Program-made: the position numbers and the translations under genes
The notes under the pieces: generated by a model
What the model was told of the DNA's origin: nothing
The model's database searches: none
Seen by the model: the letters and a program-made list of their open reading frames with translations, nothing else
Shown: positions 3,976 through 54,387 of the stretch, piece after piece
How positions within the stretch are numbered: position 1 is the first letter of the stretch
Layout of the letters: each line of letters starts with the position of its first letter
Assembly: GCA_002778465.1 (NCBI GenBank)
Contig: PFBV01000002.1
Span: forward strand, 2,312-66,311
Reading direction: 5' to 3'
Length of the DNA: 64,000 nt
From: Candidatus Magasanikbacteria bacterium CG10_big_fil_rev_8_21_14_0_10_36_32
Lineage (GTDB): Bacteria; Patescibacteriota; Patescibacteriia; Magasanikbacterales; GWA2-37-8

Positions 3976-6900
3976 TGATTAGTTGGTTAAAAATATTTTT
4001 TAAACTTTCCGGGCGGATTTTTGAATTGAAACAAAAATTATCCCAAACTGACAGTTGGATAAAATCTTTGCCTTACGCTTTCCTTTTGATTTTAGACGAA
4101 ATAGTTTTTGTTTTTATTTCTTTGCCGTTGTATTTTGCCGTGCCGCCCAAAAAAGTTCAAGAAAAAGGAATTTTATTTCCTTCAGCCGAACCGGAAACCG
4201 AAAGAATGAAAATGTTTTTTATCAGAAGAAAAATAAGTTTAATTGCTTTTATCACCGCATTGGGAATGTTAGTTTTAAAATTTTTGGTAATCGGCGGTAT
4301 TTCTTTTTATTTGATGGGCGGGCAATTGCTTTTGGCTGCCACTCAAGATTGGCTATTTACCGTCCCTGGCGATTATGCTTATGACAGTTCAAAAATTGAA
4401 TTTGTTGGAGGGATTGCCAGATTGAAAAATTTGGGAACAACGGTTACAGGCAGTACCACTAATGCTAATTTTAATACCAATGCTACTGGCTGGACTTATG
4501 CTGATTGGGATCAAGGCGGTGGTGAGGCGAATGTAGTTGGAACTTATGTGGCATCAGGGGGAAATCCAGGCGGATTTGTTCAAATTAATTTTCCAGTTGG
4601 TAAAAGCGATGAGTTTGGCGGATATTGGCGTCAAGGTTTTGCAATCACGGAAAATAATCCAACCGCAACCCTCAGTTTTGATTGGTCAATAACCGCTTTT
4701 GACAATACTCCCGCCCCAGTCACATTTAAACTTTATGCTTTCATAGATACAGGAACAGGTGTTCCGGTTATTGGTCAAGAAGTTTGGAAATCAGAAGAAA
4801 TTACCGCAACAAGCGCTTGGGTTTCTATGACAAATTTAAATATTTCTTCAAAAGTTACGGCCGCTGGCACTTATTATTTAAAAATTGCGGTATGGTTGGA
4901 AACCCCAAATAACAACACAGGTCCTTTTACGCTTGGTTACGATAATGTCATAGTCAATTGGTCAAAAACTACGATTGTTTATGATTCTAATCGTCCGACA
5001 ATTATACCAAACAATTCTTTAACACCGGTCAATCCGGCGATTTGGAGTTCTTTTACAGAAACAGCTACAAAAAACGGAGGAGAAATTTATTATCAGTTAT
5101 CGGCTGATAATGGTTCTACTTGGAACTATTGGAATGGTTCGTCTTGGATATCCGCCGGCGCGTCTAATTATAATACCGCCATTGTTGTTAATAATAATAT
5201 TGCCGGTTTTTCTACCAGCACCAACAAAATAAAATGGAAAGCTTTTTTGGAAAGCAATGGCAGTCAACAAGTTAGTTTAAGCAAGGTTTCCATCGGCTAT
5301 ACGGAAAATTCCGCTCCCAGTATTTCTGAAGTAGTTCCTGTTCAGCAGACAGATAAAGGCCAAGTTTATATTTCTTATAATTTAACTGATGTTGAAAGCG
5401 ACCCCTCCAGTTTAATTACTTATGAATATTCTTTGACGGGCGCTTTTTCCGGGGAACAGGTGACAATGATAGCGTCCACTACTAATCCAATGCACAATGG
5501 TGTGTCCGGTTTGTCGGCTTCTCCGTCTGGCATCTCGCATATTTTTGTTTGGGACGGAATTATTAATTTGCCCAATGTTTACAACACTAGTACTTATGTT
5601 CGTTTGCGCGCCAATGACGGTATCGCAAGTGGTGTTTATGTCACTTCTTCAGCTATTACGATTGATTATGTAGCACCGGTTATTAGTAATTTATCTGTTA
5701 CGCAAAATTCCGGCAGTGCTAATTTTGATATTTCTTATGATTTATTTGATAACACTTCTGATAATATAAATATTGTTTTAGAAATCTCTGATGATGGCGG
5801 TTTGACTTGGGTTGTGCCGACTGTGTCATCAGTCGGAGATTTGGGTTCCAGTGTTACAGCCGGTATCGGAAAAGTAATTACTTGGAATGCCGGAGTTGAT
5901 TATCCGGCTCATCAAGTTTCCAATATGCAAGTTCGTCTTTTGGTTAAAGATAAATATCAAAATCAAAGCGTTTATTTTAATTCAGTCAATTTTGAATTAG
6001 ATACTTTGGCGCCGGTGGCTGCAATTACAGTTGATTTAATGGCTCAGCCAAATGCCGGCGATACCGCAGTTTTAATTTTTGGTTCTTTTATTGAAACAAA
6101 TCCTAATTATAACAATTTTTTTGTTGGAGTAAACAATGGAGATTATGGTTCGGCCACAGTCGGTGATAGTAATACAATTTCTCCTTCTGCCCAGTTGGTT
6201 GCTACCGGTGTAACCTTAACTGGCGCTGATTATATTGGTAAAGCAAAGATTGCTCACACTGATGATTTTGGTTTTTCAACTGATAATGAAAATTTTTCTC
6301 CCAATAGTTCATATAAATATGTAAAACCTTATACTCCACCGGCGCCGACAGTAGGTAATCCGGCAGAAGGGTCGTTAGATGTCACTATCAACAAATATTC
6401 TTCTGAAGCTGATGGATTAGAATATTTAGTTTTTGAGAATACCCAATCAAAATATATTCAAGGCGATGGTTTATTAAGTGATAGTCCTGTTTGGTTGTCA
6501 TCAGGAACAATAACTGTAATCGGCTTGTCTGATCCTTTGTCGCAATATATTTTTAAAACAAAATCTCGCAACAATAGCGATGCGGCACATACTCTAACCA
6601 GTGAGAGTGAATGGTCGTCCGGCGCGTCTACTGATTATCAATCACCATCCGTAACAATCAATTCCGTTGCACAGACTATTAATGGAACTAAATATGTGAC
6701 AGTTGATTATGTTGGTATTGATTTTCAGAATGCTCAGAATAATCTGGTAGTATATGAATATTCCACCGATGGTTTTGGTTGGATGACAATGACGGAAAAA
6801 GTTGGTGTAGATTCCAACGGTGTAAGCGGTTTAAGTTTTTCTTCCGGCGGAACGGCTTTCAAATTCGCGTGGGATGTTGGAAACGATTTGTTTTTAACCG

Positions 6901-14843: not shown

Positions 14844-14847
14844 TTCA

Positions 14848-15122
14848 CCCCGTTAGAGATATTTATGGTTTATATTTATTTAATGCAGAGCAAGAAAGAT
14901 AATCTTTGGTATACAGGTGCTACTAGAGATTTAAAAAAACGTTTTAAAGAGCATAATGATGGGAAAGTAAAAGCAACAAGGGATAGAAGACCTTTTGTGT
15001 TAATATATTATGAAGCTTGTTTGAATGAACACGATGCTTTTACTCGTGAAAAATATTTAAAGTCAGGAATGGGAAAACGTTATCTTAAAAATCGTTTAAA
15101 ACGTTTTTTATCTCTAACGGGG
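14848..15122. mobile_element. GIY-YIG cassette bracketed by perfect 14-bp terminal inverted repeats (CCCCGTTAGAGATA ... TATCTCTAACGGGG)
   Basis: The left repeat at 14848-14861 lies 3 nt upstream of the ATG. The right repeat at 15109-15122 lies inside the last codons, immediately before the TAA. The 10-nt core CCCCGTTAGA recurs as an inverted pair at 53097/53199. Confidence 0.5.
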
Positions 15123-15125
15123 TAA
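14865..15125 (+). CDS. small GIY-YIG nuclease-family protein (YhbQ/UPF0213-like)
   Basis: 86 aa. IYL...(11 aa)...WYTG...R..KEHN matches the GIY-YIG core (Tyr pair, Arg, Glu, Asn). Paralogous to the ORF at 47285-47527. Confidence 0.7.
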   Translation: MVYIYLMQSKKDNLWYTGATRDLKKRFKEHNDGKVKATRDRRPFVLIYYEACLNEHDAFTREKYLKSGMGKRYLKNRLKRFLSLTG

Positions 15126-15128
15126 ATT

Positions 15129-15986
15129 ATGAAAAAGTTGTTTATAGTTATAGTAGTTGTCCTGCTGTTAAGCGTGGGCTTATTTTATTATATTCATTTT
15201 TCCGCCAATGAAAAAAAATTTGATATTATTTTTTTTGATGTTGGGCAAGGCGATGCAACGCTGGTGCGTTTTGAAGATGGAAGTAAAATGTTGGTAGATT
15301 GCGGACCGGACAGGACTATTTTGAAAAAACTCGGACAATATCTTCCTTTTTATGACCGGACGATTGATTATTTGCTTATTACTCATCCGGACAATGATCA
15401 TTATGGCGGTTGTGTTGACGTATTGCGTCGTTATCAAGTGAAAAATATAATTACAAATAGTGATCGTAAACCGGACGATACTTTTTGGCAAACTTGGCGT
15501 TTTTATGAAGAAAATGAAGATGCAAAAATTTTTATCATTGATGAACCGCAAATTTTTGAAATTGGGAACAATAAAATTGAATTTATTTATCCGGATACAT
15601 CTTTAATTTTATCTTCAGCCGGCGATACCAGCAATAATCAATCGTTGGTTTTTCGTTTAGTTGATAAAAGTGTAAAAGTTTTATTTACCGGAGATATTGA
15701 AGAATCATTGGAAAATGCTTTGATAAAAAAATATTGTTCAATTACAAACTGCCCTTTTTTATCAGCTGATATTTTGAAGGTCGCCCATCATGGCAGTGAC
15801 ACGTCAAGCAGTGAAGAATTTTTGAATGCGTCTAATCCGAAAGCGGCAGTGATTTCCGTCGGTCAGAATCGTTTTGGACATCCGTCTTTGCGAGTTTTGA
15901 AAAAGATGGAACGTTTACCGGTAATTGTTTTGCGCACTGATGAGTATGGCGATATTACATTTGACAAAATTTTAAAAACATGGTAA
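15129..15986 (+). CDS. membrane-anchored metallo-beta-lactamase-fold protein, ComEC C-terminal-domain type
   Basis: N-terminal TM helix. HPDNDHYGG (HxHxDH-like), VAHHGSD and later His residues are consistent with the ComEC/Rec2 MBL nuclease domain. Confidence 0.7.
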   Translation: MKKLFIVIVVVLLLSVGLFYYIHFSANEKKFDIIFFDVGQGDATLVRFEDGSKMLVDCGPDRTILKKLGQYLPFYDRTIDYLLITHPDNDHYGGCVDVLRRYQVKNIITNSDRKPDDTFWQTWRFYEENEDAKIFIIDEPQIFEIGNNKIEFIYPDTSLILSSAGDTSNNQSLVFRLVDKSVKVLFTGDIEESLENALIKKYCSITNCPFLSADILKVAHHGSDTSSSEEFLNASNPKAAVISVGQNRFGHPSLRVLKKMERLPVIVLRTDEYGDITFDKILKTW

Positions 15987-15997
15987 TATATTACTAG

Positions 15998-19060: not shown

Positions 19061-20403
19061 TATTTAATATGTTATCTCGCCTTACTAATTATCTTATCCT
19101 CTTATTTTTATTTGCGTTGCCTTTTCAAACCCGTTGGATTATTGAATATGGAATTTTAAATAATCGTCCATGGGAATTTGGGACTATCAGTTTGTATGGT
19201 ACGGAATTTTTTTTATGGCTGATAGTGATTTTGACCGGCATTCGGATTTTTGGCCGACCGGATTTTTGGAAATCATTCTCAAATTGTAGAATCAATGCTG
19301 ATTATTTTAAAATGCACAAAAAAAATATATTGGCTGTTTTGATTTTTTTATTCAGCACGGCTGTTTTTATACGTTCCGGCAATCCGATATCATGGCAATT
19401 TACCACTTGGTTTTTGGGAGGAATATGTTTAATGATTTCAATAGCTGTATCTGAATTATCTTTTTCCCGTGCCGGCATGACATTGTGGTTAAGCGGGGTT
19501 GTGCAAGGAGTATTGGCAGTTCAACAATTTTTTTATCAAAAAATTATTGGTTCAAAATGGTTAGGTATGTCCGCACAAAATTCAAGTGACTCAGGAGTTA
19601 GTGTGGTGCAGTTTGGTGACGAACGCTGGCTGAGAGCCTATGGCAGTTTTGGATGGCCTAATTCTTTGGGAATTTATTTAGCAGTTATCTTTGTTTTGGG
19701 TTTAATTTTATATTTTTATTTTTCTAAAACTAAATGGCGAATATTAATCCTGGTGGGACAATTGATTATTCTAACGGGGTTATTATTGTCTTTTTCCCGC
19801 GGTGCTTGGTTGGCGGCAGTTGGCGGTTTGCTTATTTTTGGGTTGATTGCTTGGAATAATCTGCCTTTTGAATTTACGCGGCGTAAATTTTATAGTCAAT
19901 TTGTAAAACAGTTGGCAGTTTATGCGGTATTAGTAATCAGTCTGGTGACGATTTATTTTCCAGTTTTTACAAATCGGTTTAATACAGGTAATTATTTGGA
20001 ATATTTATCTATAACGGAACGGCAAGATCAATTGAATGTTGCTGGTCAGATGATATCGGACAATTTATTTTTTGGTGTTGGCCCCGGATTGTACACTAAT
20101 TATTTGGCTAGATATTTTGTTTCGCCGACATATGGAGTTTATCAGCCTGTCCATAATATTTTTTTATTAGCACTGGCTGAATTGGGTATATTTGTGTTTT
20201 TATTTATTTTGGTCTTTGTCTTTTGGTTGATTAAAAAAATCGGTCGCGCCGGACCGATTTATTTTTCCGTTTTGACAGTTTTGTTTTTAGCCGGTTTTTA
20301 TGATCATTTTCTTTGGAGTTTATACGCCGGTCAGTTGATTTGGTGGGTGGTTTTGGCTTTAGGATTAATGTTAAAAAAATCGCAATCCAATATTGAAAAA
20401 TAA
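19039..20403 (+). CDS. polytopic membrane protein, O-antigen ligase (Wzy_C)-like
   Basis: About 10 TM helices. FSRGAWLAAVGGLLIFGL lies in a large loop, as in the WaaL/O-antigen polymerase family. Confidence 0.45.
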   Translation: MEKQNKLIFNMLSRLTNYLILLFLFALPFQTRWIIEYGILNNRPWEFGTISLYGTEFFLWLIVILTGIRIFGRPDFWKSFSNCRINADYFKMHKKNILAVLIFLFSTAVFIRSGNPISWQFTTWFLGGICLMISIAVSELSFSRAGMTLWLSGVVQGVLAVQQFFYQKIIGSKWLGMSAQNSSDSGVSVVQFGDERWLRAYGSFGWPNSLGIYLAVIFVLGLILYFYFSKTKWRILILVGQLIILTGLLLSFSRGAWLAAVGGLLIFGLIAWNNLPFEFTRRKFYSQFVKQLAVYAVLVISLVTIYFPVFTNRFNTGNYLEYLSITERQDQLNVAGQMISDNLFFGVGPGLYTNYLARYFVSPTYGVYQPVHNIFLLALAELGIFVFLFILVFVFWLIKKIGRAGPIYFSVLTVLFLAGFYDHFLWSLYAGQLIWWVVLALGLMLKKSQSNIEK

Positions 20404-47158: not shown

Positions 47159-47221
47159 TACGAGATGATTTGTTCAGTGTTTGACTTTTCAATTTATTTT
47201 TGCTATTATTATCCGAGAATT

Positions 47222-47273
47222 GGAGAGGTGGCTTCTGAGCTCCTGCCTGCCGGTAGGCAGGGGTCGAAAGCGG
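47222..47273 (+). pseudogene. duplicated tRNA-Ser 5' fragment (nt 1-12 and 18-29 of the tRNA) interrupted by a 20-bp palindrome
   Basis: GGAGAGGTGGCT and GGTCGAAAGCGG are identical to the intact tRNA-Ser at 47529. CCTGCCTGCCGGTAGGCAGG is inserted at the D-loop position. Confidence 0.55.
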
Positions 47274-47284
47274 TAATAAAATTT

Positions 47285-47527
47285 ATGTATTGCGTGTATT
47301 TTTTACAAAGTCTGAAAGATAAAGGTTTGTACATCGGAAAAACGAATAATATTAAACGTCGGTTATCTGAACACAACGCCGGTAAAGTTCAATCGACAAA
47401 AAGTAGAAAACCTTTTATTTTGTTGGGATTAGAAAAATACCAAACAGAAAAAGAATGTTTGGCGGCAGAATTAGAATGGAAAAAAGGATATAAACGCGAA
47501 CAATTAAAAGTTAGATATAGTCTATAA
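47285..47527 (+). CDS. small GIY-YIG nuclease-family protein (paralogue of 14865-15125)
   Basis: VYF...LYIGKT...RRLSEHNAGKV core. Shares the Y.L.S.KD..LY.G.T....R...HN.GKV..T..R.PF.L pattern with the other copy. Ends 1 nt before the tRNA-Ser. Confidence 0.65.
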   Translation: MYCVYFLQSLKDKGLYIGKTNNIKRRLSEHNAGKVQSTKSRKPFILLGLEKYQTEKECLAAELEWKKGYKREQLKVRYSL

Positions 47528-47528
47528 T

Positions 47529-47624
<96 letters not shown>

Positions 47625-47967: not shown

Positions 47968-48003
47968 AATTTTTTAACCAAGATTTTATTTAACGGGGTA
48001 AAT

Positions 48004-50799: not shown

Positions 50800-52797
50800 A
50801 TGGCCGAAGGTGCAATTAAAAAAATCGCGGAAAAAATACAGCTTATTCCAGCCAGGAAAAATAATTGGAAAACCGTCGTAATAATATTGGCGGTTGTTTT
50901 TGGTTTATTGGCGGTTGTGTTCGGCGTATCAGTCGTTTATTCCAAAACATACGTTGGAAAAGTTTATCCCGGAATTTATCTTGGGCATTATGATTTGTCA
51001 GGTTGGACAGCCGATGATGTAAAAAAGTTTGTTGATAGTTTTAGCCGACGTTTATCTCAGGAAGGATTGGTTTATATGTTTGAGCAAAACGGGCAATCGC
51101 AAAGAGTAGCGGTTAATCCGGCGCTTATTTCCAGCGAAGCGGCCATTGAAACGATTTTTTTAAGCAATAAAGAATTTGCCGGTGAAATTTTAAATATTGG
51201 CAGGGGAGAATCTTTTTGGTTTAAAAAAATGTGGCTGCCGTTGTGGTATAGAATAAAAACGATTCATTTGTCTTTGCCGGTGAAAATTGACCGTCAGAAT
51301 TTTCAAGGGATTATAGAAAACGCGTTAGAGGGATATGTGATTGAACCGCGTGACGCCAATATTCATTTGAGCAGTATTAATCCGTTGGCTTATGAGCTGA
51401 CTTTAGAACAATCAGGTGAAGTTTTTGATTATGAACAAATTATAGATGATACAGTTCAAAAATTATCTGAGCCGTCGCTGGAATCAATCGTTATTTCAAA
51501 ACGGTTGGTTATTCCATCGGTGACAAAAAAAGATTTAGCGGCAGCTGAAGAAAATATTTTAAGGGCGTTTAATTTTGGTCCGGCGATATTATCCCATACC
51601 GATACCGATGCCAAAGAAACTCAAGTTTGGTCGGTTGGTCCGGAATTATTGGTAAAATGGTTAAAACCTGTTTATGATTCCACCGGGAAAATTAAGTTGG
51701 AATTAAAAGAAAAAGAAGTGGGTCAATATTTGGAAAATTTGAGGGTGATTGTTGATCAGCCGGCTGAGGATGCTAAATTTTCAATGGAAAATGGCAAGGT
51801 GAGTGAATTTAAAAATGGTCATTCCGGACGCAGTTTGAATGTGGCTAAAACTTACGGTGAATTAAATAATTTATTTATCAAAATAAGCCAAGGAGAAAAT
51901 GTTGATAAAACAGTTATTAATTTAGCGGTTGACCAAACCGAACCGAAATTGAAATTATCCGATATTAATGATTATGGAATTACCGGAATATTCGGCGTTG
52001 GTACTTCAACTTTTTATGATAGTCATAATAACCGCATTAAAAATATTGCCAACGCAGTTGAACGGTTGAATGGTATAATTATCAAGCCGGGGGAAGAATT
52101 TTCTTCTATTAAATATGCCGGTTCATTTACTGAAGAAAATGGATTTTTACCGGAAGAAATAATCAAAGGCAATAAAATTATTAAAGAAGTCGGAGGAGGA
52201 ATGTGTCAGATTGGCACCACTTTGTTCAGAATGGCCATGAATTCCGGTATGCCGATTACAGAACGAACCAATCATTCTTTGGTGGTTGGTTATTATGCAG
52301 ATCCAATTAATGGAAATCCGGGTACGGACGCTACTTTGTATGAACCAATTTTGGATTTTAAATTTATGAATGATACCGGCGGTTATTTGTTGTTGCAAAC
52401 GGAAATTAATTATAAAAAACAAATGTTGATTTTTACTTTGTGGGGAACACCTGATGGTCGTTCTGGATTTTATAGCCGTCCGATAGTGAGTAAATGGATT
52501 CCAGCCGGTTTGCCGCAAGAAATAAAAACAACCACTTTAAAACCTGGTGAGACAAAATGTCAAAATGCATTTCGTGGCGCGAACGCCAGTTTTACATATA
52601 CTCGGTTTAATCAATCGGGTGAAAAAATTGAACGGGTATTTTCCAGTTATTACCGTCCGTTGCCAAAAATGTGTATGACTGGCATTAGTCCGAATGAATG
52701 CCCTGACGGAAAAACAACTTGTGATATTATTGTTAAAAATACAGCCACCAGTACGCCTTCGGCCACACCGAATTCTCAACCTCTTTTAGCTGACTAG
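50800..52797 (+). CDS. VanW-domain protein, membrane-anchored
   Basis: N-terminal TM helix. VanW core ...VGGGMCQIGTTLFRMAMNSGMPITERTNHS. Confidence 0.7.
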   Translation: MAEGAIKKIAEKIQLIPARKNNWKTVVIILAVVFGLLAVVFGVSVVYSKTYVGKVYPGIYLGHYDLSGWTADDVKKFVDSFSRRLSQEGLVYMFEQNGQSQRVAVNPALISSEAAIETIFLSNKEFAGEILNIGRGESFWFKKMWLPLWYRIKTIHLSLPVKIDRQNFQGIIENALEGYVIEPRDANIHLSSINPLAYELTLEQSGEVFDYEQIIDDTVQKLSEPSLESIVISKRLVIPSVTKKDLAAAEENILRAFNFGPAILSHTDTDAKETQVWSVGPELLVKWLKPVYDSTGKIKLELKEKEVGQYLENLRVIVDQPAEDAKFSMENGKVSEFKNGHSGRSLNVAKTYGELNNLFIKISQGENVDKTVINLAVDQTEPKLKLSDINDYGITGIFGVGTSTFYDSHNNRIKNIANAVERLNGIIIKPGEEFSSIKYAGSFTEENGFLPEEIIKGNKIIKEVGGGMCQIGTTLFRMAMNSGMPITERTNHSLVVGYYADPINGNPGTDATLYEPILDFKFMNDTGGYLLLQTEINYKKQMLIFTLWGTPDGRSGFYSRPIVSKWIPAGLPQEIKTTTLKPGETKCQNAFRGANASFTYTRFNQSGEKIERVFSSYYRPLPKMCMTGISPNECPDGKTTCDIIVKNTATSTPSATPNSQPLLAD

Positions 52798-52831
52798 CTG
52801 TGTTGGCAGGATAATTTAAACTAAAAAACAA

Positions 52832-52864
52832 ACCACCCCGCATTATTTTGCGGGGTGGTTTAAT
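52832..52864 (+). terminator. rho-independent terminator
   Basis: ACCACCCCGC-ATTATTTT-GCGGGGTGGT followed by a T-run. Confidence 0.65.
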
Positions 52865-53096
52865 TGATATTGGGGGAATGAACCCCCTAGAGTTCCGTAT
52901 TCAAGAAGATGTGTCAAAGGTGGAGATAAGCCGTGGCCTATGCAGACCGTTAACACATCCCCATGCTTGTGGTGAATACGGGAAATTGCTCGTTTTTTCT
53001 CGTTAAAAGGGGCAATTTCTCGTATTCTTACAGCATTGGATGTCCGTAGATTTTCAAACAACAAAGTATTGTATCACATCTAAATCATTTTGTCAA

Positions 53097-53211
53097 CCCC
53101 GTTAGAAAAGCCAATTGAAAAATTTTAGTAATCTTAGCCTAAAAATTGAATAATACCCTGTGGATAAACCTTTAGAAAAGCATCTTTTCGTGGAATAATT
53201 TTCTAACGGGG
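53097..53211. mobile_element. ORF-less miniature element bounded by inverted repeats CCCCGTTAGAAAA / TTTTCTAACGGGG (MITE-like relative of the GIY-YIG cassette repeats)
   Basis: The 13-bp arms share the 10-nt core CCCCGTTAGA with the repeats flanking the GIY-YIG gene at 14848/15109. The ~90-nt interior has no ORF. Confidence 0.45.
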
Positions 53212-53221
53212 TCAAGCCCGA

Positions 53222-53241
53222 CCTGCCTGCCGGCAGGCAGG
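53222..53241. repeat. perfect 20-bp palindrome CCTGCCTGCCGGCAGGCAGG
   Basis: One-mismatch copy at 47242-47261, inside the tRNA-Ser 5' fragment next to the second GIY-YIG gene. Confidence 0.55.
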
Positions 53242-53424
53242 CGTAAAAAAGTCGGGGTCCCGACCCCCCAAAGGGGCGTCGGGAGGGATCAATTTAGTCA
53301 TTTTTTGGTTTAAACTGGGGAAAAATATTATTTTTGGCTAATGTTAGGGTTAAAATCTGTATTATCCGTATTTTGTTTATTAATTCAAGTCAATGTGTTA
53401 ATTTTATTTATTTTTATTTCAGAA

Positions 53425-53456
53425 TAAAACAAAAACCCCGCATTTACGGGGTTTGA
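53425..53456 (-). terminator. rho-independent terminator for the minus-strand small gene
   Basis: AAACCCCG-CATTTAC-GGGGTTT with the T-run on the minus strand. Confidence 0.55.
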
Positions 53457-53473
53457 AGAACAATAAAGGTATT

Positions 53474-53680
53474 TTATTTGCGATTGTGTATGATGTTATA
53501 GAAAAATTCAGCGCTGACTGCGCCAAGGGCTATACCAAACAGAATACCAATCGCGCCCAATGAATTTTTGAATAAGAATCCGATGACTCCTCCGGCCACA
53601 GCTCCAATGAGCATAATTGATTTGTCCAACATTATTTGTCTCCTTGGTTTTGGTTGCGTATTAAAAAGAACATTGTTCAA
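53474..53680 (-). CDS. small Gly-rich two-TM protein, GlsB/YeaQ/YmgE (transglycosylase-associated) family-like
   Basis: 68 aa. GAVAGGVIGFLF...GAIGILFGIALGAV GxxxG-rich helices. Confidence 0.45.
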   Translation of the reverse strand: MNNVLFNTQPKPRRQIMLDKSIMLIGAVAGGVIGFLFKNSLGAIGILFGIALGAVSAEFFYNIIHNRK

Positions 53681-53719
53681 AAGATAGCATTTTTATATAG
53701 ATGTGTCAATTATAGATAA

Positions 53720-53753
53720 AAACAAAAAACCACTCCGTTTACTGAGTGGTTTT
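53720..53753 (-). terminator. rho-independent terminator downstream of clpP
   Basis: ACCACTC-CGTTTACT-GAGTGGT with a T-run on the minus strand. Confidence 0.55.
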
Positions 53754-53763
53754 AATTTGAATC

Positions 53764-54387
53764 TTACTCAATAATTTTATCTATCAAACCGTATTTTTTA
53801 GCTTCAGTCGGATTGATGAAATAATCACGGTCAGTATCTTTTTCAATTGTCGGCATCGGCTGTCCGGTATGTTTGGCTAAAATTTTATTCAAACGATCTT
53901 TCATTTTAATAATTCTTTCCGCATGGATTTTAATGTCGCTGGCTTGACCTTCCATCCCACCCATCACTTGATGAATCATTACTTCGGCGTTTGGCAGAGC
54001 TAATCGTTTTCCTTTGGCGCCAGCGGCCAAAAGAACGGCGGCCATGCTGGCGGCCATACCGACACAAATTGTGCTGACATCGGATTTAAGAAATTGCATT
54101 GTGTCATAAATCGCCATGCCGGAAGTGACTGAACCGCCTGGAGAATTAATATATAGTTTAATGTCTTTGTCAGGATTTTGATTATCCAAAAATAGCATTT
54201 GAGCGATAACTAAATTAGCCACCGCGTCATCAATCGGTCCACCAAGAAAAATAATTCTGTCTTGTAATAAACGGGAAAAAATATCAAACGACCGTTCGCC
54301 ATAGCTGGTTTTTTCCACCACGATAGGAACGAGATGTTGAGCTTGTGGCATTTTTTGGGAAATAGTTGTATTTTCTTCTTGTGTCAT
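53764..54387 (-). CDS. clpP: ATP-dependent Clp protease proteolytic subunit
   Basis: ...[20 protein letters not shown]...MIHQVMGG... Ser-His-Asp triad context. Confidence 0.9.

Follow-up and report, generated by a model that had tools for sequence, protein, structure and literature searches.

An uncatalogued structured small RNA gene of Candidatus Magasanikbacteria in a spacer enlarged by inserted repeats

The stretch of DNA analysed here (the window) comprises 64,000 nucleotides of contig PFBV01000002.1 (assembly GCA_002778465.1) from Candidatus Magasanikbacteria bacterium CG10_big_fil_rev_8_21_14_0_10_36_32, a member of the Patescibacteria, or Candidate Phyla Radiation (CPR). Within it, a seemingly empty spacer of 560 bp (positions 52865 to 53424) lies between a vanW-family gene and clpP. 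About one-third of this spacer is a structured small RNA (sRNA) gene, and most of the remainder is inserted repeat DNA. The sRNA gene, about 240 nt long and read from the minus strand, is independently transcribed, single-copy and highly structured; its ends are predictions taken from the positions of its promoter and terminator. Our confidence that 52823-53062 holds a true RNA gene, and one that represents a new family, is about 0.9. The word "new" applies to the family, for which neither an Rfam 15 match nor a description in the searchable literature was found, whereas its kind, the independently transcribed structured sRNA of the chromosome, is known. The family is uncatalogued and so far specific to Candidatus Magasanikbacteria. 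CPR genomes are of about 1 Mb, and to our knowledge almost no regulatory RNAs have been characterised in them.

An earlier note on this DNA, made from the sequence alone, had described the spacer as one structured and locally GC-rich unit, typical of an RNA gene, with no credible open reading frame (ORF) and with convergent terminators on its two sides. Much of this description was borne out. The four hairpins that it named were all found where it had placed them, no ORF of the region had support, and the GC excess was real (0.44 to 0.455 in 52800-52999 and 53100-53299, compared with 0.365 for the whole window), with a drop to 0.255 at 53300-53499. The whole region folded more strongly than its shuffles (z = -4.3 and -8.0 for plus and minus strand, respectively), and a consensus scan gave 9 terminator-like sites (1.7 +/- 1.3 in shuffles) and 10 promoter-like sites (4.4 +/- 2.3). 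The region was not found to be a single unit, and is with good probability a composite of three unlike parts, the RNA gene on the left, inserted repeats in the middle and an AT-rich spacer of about 25% GC on the right (Table 1). The suspected RNA gene is present, but is confined to 52823-53062 on the minus strand and takes in the supposed left terminator. Two of the cited hairpins, GGGGGAATGAACCCCC (P4) and GAAATTGC/GCAATTTC (upper P2), belong to it, while GGGGTCCCGACCCC and CCCCAAAGGGG, together with the palindrome and the "miniature element" that had been counted with them, lie within about 210 bp that the relatives lack. Nor do convergent terminators bracket the region, as the terminator at 52829-52862 is bidirectional and forms the 3' end of the RNA gene, and that at 53433-53454, which ends a small ORF to the right, scores as a terminator on the minus strand only.

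The spacer is real and fixed in the sampled population rather than an assembly artefact, since positions 52798 to 53763 were 100% identical in four other assemblies. Variants without the insertion were sought, and the four assemblies with an identical ClpP were all 100% identical across the spacer. From vanW to clpP it measures 966 bp, compared with approximately 340 to 450 bp in the relatives that were located through a flanking protein, except for two (L004 and L008) in which an extra ORF lies between the RNA and the vanW-family gene.

Table 1. Positions of the features in and beside the spacer, numbered along the window
Feature	Position	Strand	Basis
sRNA gene, about 240 nt, predicted start at about 53062/53061, U-tail at 52823	52823-53062	minus	promoter, terminator, fold, homologues
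Promoter: -35 TTGACA (53096-53091), 17-nt spacer, extended -10 TGaTACAAT (53076-53068)	53068-53096	minus	consensus scan
5' strands of P1 (AUGCUGU, 53036-53030) and of the P2 base (GAAUACGAG, 53027-53019)	53019-53036	minus	minimum-free-energy fold
Upper P2 hairpin, AAAUUGCCCC...GAGCAAUUUC (GAAATTGC/GCAATTTC of the earlier note)	52982-53018	minus	inverted repeat, folds
Switch segment CCGUAUUC, two alternative partners	52974-52981	minus	folds and RNAalifold consensus
J2/3, ACCACAAGCAU, with invariant ACAAGCAU	52963-52973	minus	invariant columns of alignments A2 and A3
P3, long hairpin with CACG tetraloop apex (elsewhere UUCG/UACG)	52905-52962	minus	RNAalifold, pair counts
3' strand GAAUACGG, partner of CCGUAUUC in the closing helix Pc	52895-52902	minus	RNAalifold, pair counts
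P4, G+C-rich hairpin GGGGGUUCAUUCCCCC (first hairpin of the earlier note)	52872-52887	minus	fold, alignment
Intrinsic terminator common to the sRNA (minus) and the vanW-family gene (plus)	52829-52862	both	13-14 pairs, T-runs on both strands
114-bp inverted-repeat element, no ORF, termini CCCGTTAGAAAA / TTTTCTAACGGGG	53097-53210		14-nt perfect inverted repeat, junctions
91-bp GC-rich palindromic block	53216-53306		repeats, folds; absent in relatives
Ancestral promoter-upstream module TTAGCCAAAA...TTTTTCCCC...AACC	53307-53341	minus	alignment to relatives after deleting the insert
AT-rich spacer, about 25% GC, no feature found	53342-53424		sequence reading, GC
Intrinsic terminator of the 53-aa ORF (right terminator of the earlier note), outside the finding	53433-53454	minus only	consensus scan

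Promoter, terminator and homologues of the RNA gene

The strongest clue in the single sequence, which the earlier note had missed, was a minus-strand promoter of the extended -10 type that comes close to the consensus. It is the best promoter match of the area and agrees with the consensus at 11 of 12 positions, in addition to the TG. The predicted transcript of 238 nt that starts there folds at -91 kcal/mol (z = -8.6) and contains four or five hairpins. The window holds six full-consensus TTGACA-N14-TGnTAnnnT sites where 0.04 are expected, so that this form appears to be the standard strong promoter of the genome; one of the six is the promoter of the 16S rRNA. Further sites of this form stand ahead of protein genes at 15961-15989, 60107-60135 and 61196-61224.

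To find homologues, ten loci were first collected through the VanW-family protein, one (L001) by a scan of a genome collection and nine (L002 to L010) by contig look-ups from eight VanW homologues of 45 to 75% identity. The RNA was present at the same position in all ten, a result which is unbiased with respect to the RNA because the loci were chosen without reference to it. On the strand of clpP, the order in these loci was the clpP terminator, a TTGACA-17-TG-TAtAcT promoter, a variable 5' region, the core, a GC-rich hairpin and the terminator, and the core was nearly invariant (CCGUAUyy..ACAAGCAUGGrGrUG...CACAUCUUCUUrrrUrCGG). None of the ten had the inverted-repeat element, the palindromes or the small ORF of the window. 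A scan of metagenomes with the pattern CCGTATYYN{2,4}ACAAGCATGGRGRTG added 55 loci, bringing the family to 65 fetched loci other than the window (from Candidatus Magasanikbacteria genomes and metagenomes), two of which duplicate others.

In 63 of the 66 sequences the core was preceded by one and only one TTGACA-17-TAnnnT, nearly always with the TG and at a distance of 57 to 290 nt; the remaining three were cut by contig ends. The terminator stood at the same position in every complete homologue. The covariance model of the core (R1) gave 98.8 bits on the minus strand (52892-52993), compared with 28 bits on the plus strand, and matched once in the window and exactly once in each of the 65 loci. 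An independent sRNA gene should have a promoter and an intrinsic terminator of its own, both conserved, and a structure that is kept through compensatory substitutions. Both were found, the former with the promoter in 63 of 63 testable loci. The absence of covariation and conservation, which the earlier note had named as part of the outcome that would speak for debris, was not what the alignments gave: the gene was in all 65 related loci with compensatory changes. Scans of viral contigs yielded no matches to the RNA core or to the inverted-repeat element.

The flanking VanW-family protein is only 42 to 75% identical across the species of the 65 loci. Since the RNA is single-copy and present in every relative examined, has a promoter that is conserved to the base and has loops more conserved than the flanking proteins, it is likely to be important for these organisms.

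The position of the gene is also largely conserved. Upstream on the same strand, clpP was found in 54 of 57 testable loci (median distance to the core, 262 nt), and downstream a convergent vanW-family or hsp20 gene was found in 50 of 51. This nearly constant place directly behind clpP, and the terminator that the RNA has in common with the vanW-family gene, would suit a cis-acting part of a neighbouring mRNA, either a structured 3' untranslated region of clpP or a module that serves the convergent hsp20-vanW operon as antisense RNA or terminator. We regard such a role as very improbable. A terminator of clpP stands ahead of the RNA in the ten relatives located through the protein, and also in the majority of the listed stretches upstream of the promoter, and the RNA always has its own consensus promoter. 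In three related metagenome loci with a rearrangement (L012, L029 and L035) clpP is missing upstream, yet the promoter, the RNA and the downstream vanW-family gene are kept intact, which shows on sequence grounds that the RNA gene would be autonomous. The RNA does not reach the coding sequence of vanW, whose stop is at 52797 compared with an RNA end at about 52823, nor does it precede any gene on its own strand, the next gene being convergent.

Two of the loci deserve separate mention. In L012, 6.9 kb of other sequence stands where clpP would be. L001 (CAYOXC010000003.1) is labelled "uncultured Gammaproteobacteria bacterium" but is fully syntenic (hsp20, vanW-family gene, sRNA, clpP, nrnA-like gene, smc); because of this synteny with Magasanikbacteria loci and the presence of the sRNA, its taxonomic label is probably wrong.

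Conserved structure of the RNA

From 5' to 3', the RNA would consist of a leader of 51 to 284 nt, P1/P2, the segment CCGUAUyy, an invariant 11-nt strand with ACAAGCAU, the hairpin P3, the strand rrRURCGG, P4, an A-rich linker and the terminator. The RNAalifold consensus was built on an alignment (A2) of 58 distinct sequences and pairs CCGUAUyy(A) with (U)rrRURCGG in a helix, Pc, that closes around the long hairpin P3. In the core structure 97.6% of the cells paired, compared with 41 to 49% when the 3' partners were slid by 1 to 3 columns, and none of 500 column shuffles reached any of the five observed pairing measures. Twelve of the 30 consensus pairs had changed on both sides, including 8 of the 16 pairs of helix 2 and 2 of the 5 of helix 3. 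Within Pc, columns 20-97 were CG in 49 sequences, UA in 8 and UG in 1, and columns 21-96 were CG in 57 and UA in 1. An invariant G.U at columns 34-92, together with several other pairs, fixed the strand of the RNA.

The base helix of P3 is formed by GGGGAUGUG and CACAUCUUC and includes the invariant CUUCUU, and its apex across the family is a GGC-UUCG/UACG/CACG-GCU stem-loop. The homologues retain upper P2 in spite of an identity of only 45% in its 3' strand; the cognate duplexes had a mean of -10.1 kcal/mol, compared with -6.7 for non-cognate ones. At the position of P4 the homologues also have a GC-rich hairpin, the sequence of which is not conserved. The invariance of J2/3 is partly forced by the search pattern, and the first ten protein-anchored loci have the same columns. 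In several minimum-free-energy folds the 5' leader, which cannot be aligned, formed a long-range stem with the 3' strand.

These substitutions also bear on whether the region encodes a small protein. A 73-aa ORF does exist on the minus strand (52843-53064), and an invariant AUG in ACAAGCAUGG that is followed by a GGAGGUG-like sequence could open a tiny ORF. The 73-aa ORF starts with TTG, lies wholly inside the RNA gene and has no Pfam or NCBIfam match. No frame survives the 1-nt indels of the conserved core and the variable 5' region. A peptide starting at the AUG would range from 3 to more than 40 codons among the homologues, and the substitutions are compensatory for pairing, without codon periodicity. 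The probability of a small protein is accordingly next to nil in our estimate.

Known RNA classes and a possible conformational switch

The Rfam scan that the earlier note had proposed was run, and the RNA matched none of the 4227 families of Rfam 15. At gathering thresholds the window gave only tRNA-Ser and the start of the 16S rRNA, and 13 of the homologous loci likewise gave only tRNA and 16S. At E values of up to 5-10, 52700-53800 and 15 homologous loci gave only weak, terminator-driven matches well below threshold, with no recurring family. ARAGORN found no tRNA or transfer-messenger RNA (tmRNA) in the region. For tmRNA, RNase P RNA, signal recognition particle (SRP) RNA and 6S RNA, of which the earlier note had seen no signatures by eye, no model matched either. 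A literature search on small or structured RNAs of CPR, Patescibacteria or Magasanikbacteria found nothing relevant.

Within the core, the segment CCGUAUyy has two conserved partners. In 54 of 56 full-length folds it paired upstream with GGAUnnGG, 23 to 50 nt away, as part of P2, and Pc was not formed there; its mean pairing probability in these folds was 0.81 upstream compared with 0.05 downstream. An upstream complement with at least 7 of 8 ungapped pairs was present in 78% of the sequences but in only 11% of the shuffles. The downstream partner is the stricter of the two (99.4% of the cells paired), the upstream one usually having a central mismatch. The yy positions covary with both partners, UC occurring with GA and GA, CC with GG and GG, and CU with AG and AG. 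In most sequences GCUU(G), CUUGU or CAUG lies just 5' of the upstream partner and is complementary to parts of the invariant ACAAGCAUG, in registers that differ.

Two conserved partners that exclude each other suggest a conformational switch, as far as this can be read from sequence. Because both partners are conserved, and most sequences have a complement of part of ACAAGCAUG, we infer two mutually exclusive states. In the first, P1/P2 would be completed through GGAUnnGG, the neighbouring GCUU(G) would sequester ACAAGC and the 3' strand would be free. In the second, Pc would close around P3 through rrRURCGG, ACGACAAGCAU would be displayed as an 11-nt asymmetric internal loop and the 5' strand would be free. 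The two exclusive helices thus offer a concrete hypothesis for structure probing.

On this basis we favour, tentatively and at somewhat less than even odds, an RNA that may be stable and trans-acting, with a regulatory role or bound to protein, and that would work as a conformational switch. Several points weigh against this reading and against the family as here delimited. The covariation of the switch segment comes from two independent changes (the clade with UC and the pair L010/L049). Thermodynamic folds favour P2 and the alignment consensus favours Pc, so that the two-state model goes beyond what either gives singly; a single static fold, in which the other complement serves another purpose, would be the alternative. 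No target, ligand or protein partner was found, the target sites having been sought in the 64-kb window and at neighbouring start sites. For 55 of the 65 homologues, the gathering pattern itself required CCGTATYY...ACAAGCATGGRGRTG, so that the invariance there is partly due to ascertainment. A family gathered in this way also looks narrower than it may be, and the effective sequence number of the model is only 1.45.

An unlikely but still sizeable possibility is that the RNA would represent a hitherto unrecognised housekeeping class of CPR bacteria, core and abundant, with a promoter module of the rRNA type. By toggling between its two conformations it would make the invariant 11-nt loop accessible to a partner, either a protein or a small molecule, and it might serve as a trans-acting switch or as the subunit of a lineage-specific ribonucleoprotein, possibly tied to clpP and hsp20.

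A divergent universal RNA that the Rfam models fail to recognise in CPR bacteria would most plausibly be 6S RNA (ssrS), which among the housekeeping RNAs is the most difficult to recognise from sequence. The resemblances are a size of approximately 200 to 300 nt, a single copy, presence as a core gene of the lineage, a strong promoter of the stable-RNA type and an upstream module (TTAGCC / TTATCCAC) that also stands ahead of the 16S rRNA promoter of the window. The conserved alternative helices recall the rearrangement by which 6S RNA releases RNA polymerase, a comparison made from background knowledge. We nevertheless consider this identity improbable. No model of 6S, SRP, RNase P or tmRNA matched the window or the 15 homologues, even at the relaxed E values. 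In the consensus and in the per-sequence folds, the conserved fold consists of separate hairpins (P2, P3, P4 and the terminator) instead of a rod closed by a stem of the 5' and 3' ends. It has a single large loop, in which 11 nt face 1 to 2 nt, so that a two-sided central bubble is missing; the length of the 5' part ranges from 51 to 284 nt.

Other known systems resemble the sRNA in part. With the orphan structured RNAs that comparative genomics has uncovered (raiA motif/ModT, OLE and similar "Gene" families of Rfam) it shares a stand-alone gene, a conserved fold of several helices, restriction to a lineage, invariant nucleotides that gather in loops and junctions, and a role that is not evident from sequence; it differs from them in resembling no Rfam 15 family in sequence or structure, in having so far been met in Magasanikbacteria alone and in its link with the clpP locus. 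The trans-acting sRNAs of the RsaE/RoxS type from Firmicutes have a similar build of promoter, structured body, A-rich linker and terminator hairpin with U-tail, and the invariant pyrimidine-rich CUUCUU could pair with a Shine-Dalgarno-like AAGGAG. In this RNA, however, CUUCUU is mostly paired within P3 (mean unpaired probability of 0.27, and of 0.56 for ACAAGCAU), and complements of the 3' strand and of J2/3 were not enriched in the 64-kb window or at the start sites of five neighbouring genes (65 loci). It is also longer and more structured than seed-type sRNAs. As in a riboswitch or attenuator, one strand has two conserved, covarying and exclusive partners, and the asymmetric internal loop could be a binding pocket; unlike in those, no gene follows on the same strand and the sole terminator is constitutive and apart from the alternative helices.

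Two further ideas were considered. Pairing of ACAAGCAUG with the 5' region of the 16S rRNA, CAUGCAAGUCG, was rejected, as it leaves two central mismatches in the 16S of this organism itself. Mimicry of a Shine-Dalgarno or anti-Shine-Dalgarno sequence by the base of P3 was not supported, as GGAGGUG occurs in only a subset of the homologues and the A/G changes are neutral opposite U. The alignment of 58 sequences, the consensus structure and the covariance model describe a new family that could go to Rfam and could be mapped across CPR genomes.

Inserted repeats and the neighbourhood of the gene

Between the promoter of the sRNA and its ancestral upstream module, positions 53097 to 53306 are a genome-specific insertion of about 210 bp of repeat DNA that is probably mobile. 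With these positions deleted, the window aligned colinearly with TTAGCCAAAA-N-TTATCCCC-N-CCTTGACA of the relatives, and GGGC/ACC-TTGACAAAA was restored as in the relatives, which thus represent the empty site. Neither the inverted-repeat motif nor the palindromic block was found in the 65 related loci (approximately 500 kb).

The promoter-proximal part is an element of 114 bp with perfect 14-nt inverted repeat arms (53096-53109 and 53199-53212), flanked by TTGAC at 53092-53096 and 53211-53215. On the minus strand, the junctions read GCAGGCAGGTCGGGC-TTGAC, then the 114 bp from CCCGTTAGAAAA to TTTTCTAACGGGG, then TTGAC-AAAATG. The element would have landed in the -35 hexamer, where the right-hand copy of the TTGAC duplication would have regenerated TTGACA, and the locus would thus illustrate how a miniature inverted-repeat element can enter a promoter and restore it. 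Like miniature inverted-repeat transposable elements (MITEs), it is short, non-coding and genome-specific, with perfect terminal inverted repeats, a flanking direct duplication as target-site duplication and an empty site in the relatives. In addition, the same termini bracket a protein-coding unit elsewhere in the window. That unit, unlike those of MITEs, carries a GIY-YIG nuclease instead of a transposase, the interiors are unrelated and copies are few in the 64 kb; the likeness to MITEs is a matter of sequence and the mobility is putative. Two points count against the interpretation, namely that the register of the target-site duplication is ambiguous (TTGAC, or TG with a longer repeat) and that its recurrence at other places in the window is limited to the termini, the interiors being unrelated.

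The second part, of 91 bp, contains a perfect palindrome of 20 nt, CCTGCCTGCCGGCAGGCAGG (53222-53241), and the hairpins GGGGTCCCGACCCC, CCCCAAAGGGG and CCCGACGCCCCTTTGGGGGGTCGGG, for which repetitive extragenic palindromic (REP)-like units offer a comparison; on its minus strand, GGGGTCGGGACCCCGAC-TTTTTT resembles a terminator. Together, both insertions would have separated the promoter from the ancestral module, which now lies about 210 bp from the -35 hexamer. In most relatives TTAGCCAAAA-N-TTATCC(C/A)C-N-CCTTGACA is directly upstream of the promoter, the parts TTAGCC[A/T]AA and TTATCC[A/C]C being present in 39 and 25 of 60 sequences, respectively.

The earlier note had allowed for decaying debris of mobile elements. 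In its full form this rival reading would make the whole spacer such debris or repeat remains, with hairpins that are relics of palindromic elements and no functional RNA. For 53097-53306 debris is the better description, in that the middle 210 bp are truly genome-specific repeat material and small GIY-YIG elements with the same inverted-repeat termini and the same palindrome occur in the same genome. For the left part it is refuted. The left 240 nt keep their promoter, terminator and compensatory changes in 65 loci in spite of a VanW identity of 42 to 75%, and debris is not expected to retain a perfect TTGACA-17-TG-TAnnnT promoter in all of the 63 loci where it could be tested. As an account of the entire spacer, debris has in our view a very small probability, and a conserved RNA gene beside an insertion remains the preferred description.

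Sequences related to the insertion were observed elsewhere in the window. The terminus ACCCCGTTAGA occurred at 6 sites, compared with 0.63 expected. At 14847-15123, an ORF for an 86-aa GIY-YIG nuclease (Pfam, 1e-16) lies within a 21-nt inverted repeat, ATAATT[C/T]ACCCCGTTAGAGAT, the core of which equals the termini (ACCCCGTTAGA) of the 114-bp element; the right arm of this repeat supplies the last codons of the ORF and lies just ahead of the start of the next gene (15129). Solo termini of the ACCCCGTTAGA type are located at 19767-19780 and 47986-47999, one of them within a coding sequence and the other immediately ahead of the start codon of ORF 48004. A second copy of the 20-nt palindrome (47242-47261) lies inside a duplicated 5' half of tRNA-Ser, beside a second GIY-YIG ORF. 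In this region (47211-47621) an extra copy of the first 29 nt of tRNA-Ser(GCU) precedes the intact gene. The D-loop of the copy is interrupted by "tct" and the palindrome CCTGCCTGCCGGTAGGCAGG, and the GIY-YIG ORF of 80 aa (47285-47527) stands between the partial copy and the intact tRNA-Ser(GCU); the arrangement resembles the insertion of a small element into a tRNA gene. The termini of the element are in this way linked to small GIY-YIG genes of the same genome.

The promoter-upstream module was also seen beyond the sRNA. TTAGCC(A/T)AAA or its complement, with the DnaA-box-like TTATCC(A/C)C(A), is present ahead of the sRNA promoters of most relatives (L007 to L065) and ahead of the 16S promoter of the window, which has the form GGCTAAGATTATCCACA-N10-TTGACA-17-TGTTATTCT (63466-63528). 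This common module may be the binding site of a regulator of stable-RNA genes, to judge from its distribution. The 114-bp element carries a perfect copy of TTATCCACA as well as GGCTAAGATTA, both of which also occur at the rRNA promoter. A replication origin had been suggested by the first of these, a perfect DnaA box at 53159-53167, and by the DnaA-box-like motifs upstream of many homologues. It was rejected, and the motif was read as a promoter-upstream module, because DnaA boxes were not enriched (27 in the window, compared with 21 +/- 5 expected), there was no switch in GC skew and the same motif occurs at the rRNA promoter.

On the left, the spacer is flanked on the plus strand by an hsp20 gene and the gene of a 665-aa VanW-domain protein, and on the right by a small ORF, clpP and an nrnA-like DHH gene on the minus strand, followed by smc on the plus strand. 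The VanW-family protein was 100% identical to one recorded for Candidatus Magasanikbacteria bacterium CG10_big_fil_rev, in keeping with a CPR/Patescibacteria source. The small ORF belongs to a cassette (53433-53709) between clpP and the sRNA which comprises its own consensus extended -10 promoter (53681-53709), an ORF for a 53-aa membrane protein (53474-53635) with a weak glycine-zipper/DUF456 match, and a terminator. This cassette was absent from the ten protein-anchored relatives, and none of the 65 loci yielded a similar ORF. In L010 (approximately 5240-5320, minus strand) and L049, the stem of the clpP terminator encloses a nested palindrome, CCTGCCTACCTACCGG...CCGTAGGTATGCAGACAGG, like the CCTGCCTGCC palindrome of the window; these nested palindromes suggest a family of small palindromic insertions in Magasanikbacteria.

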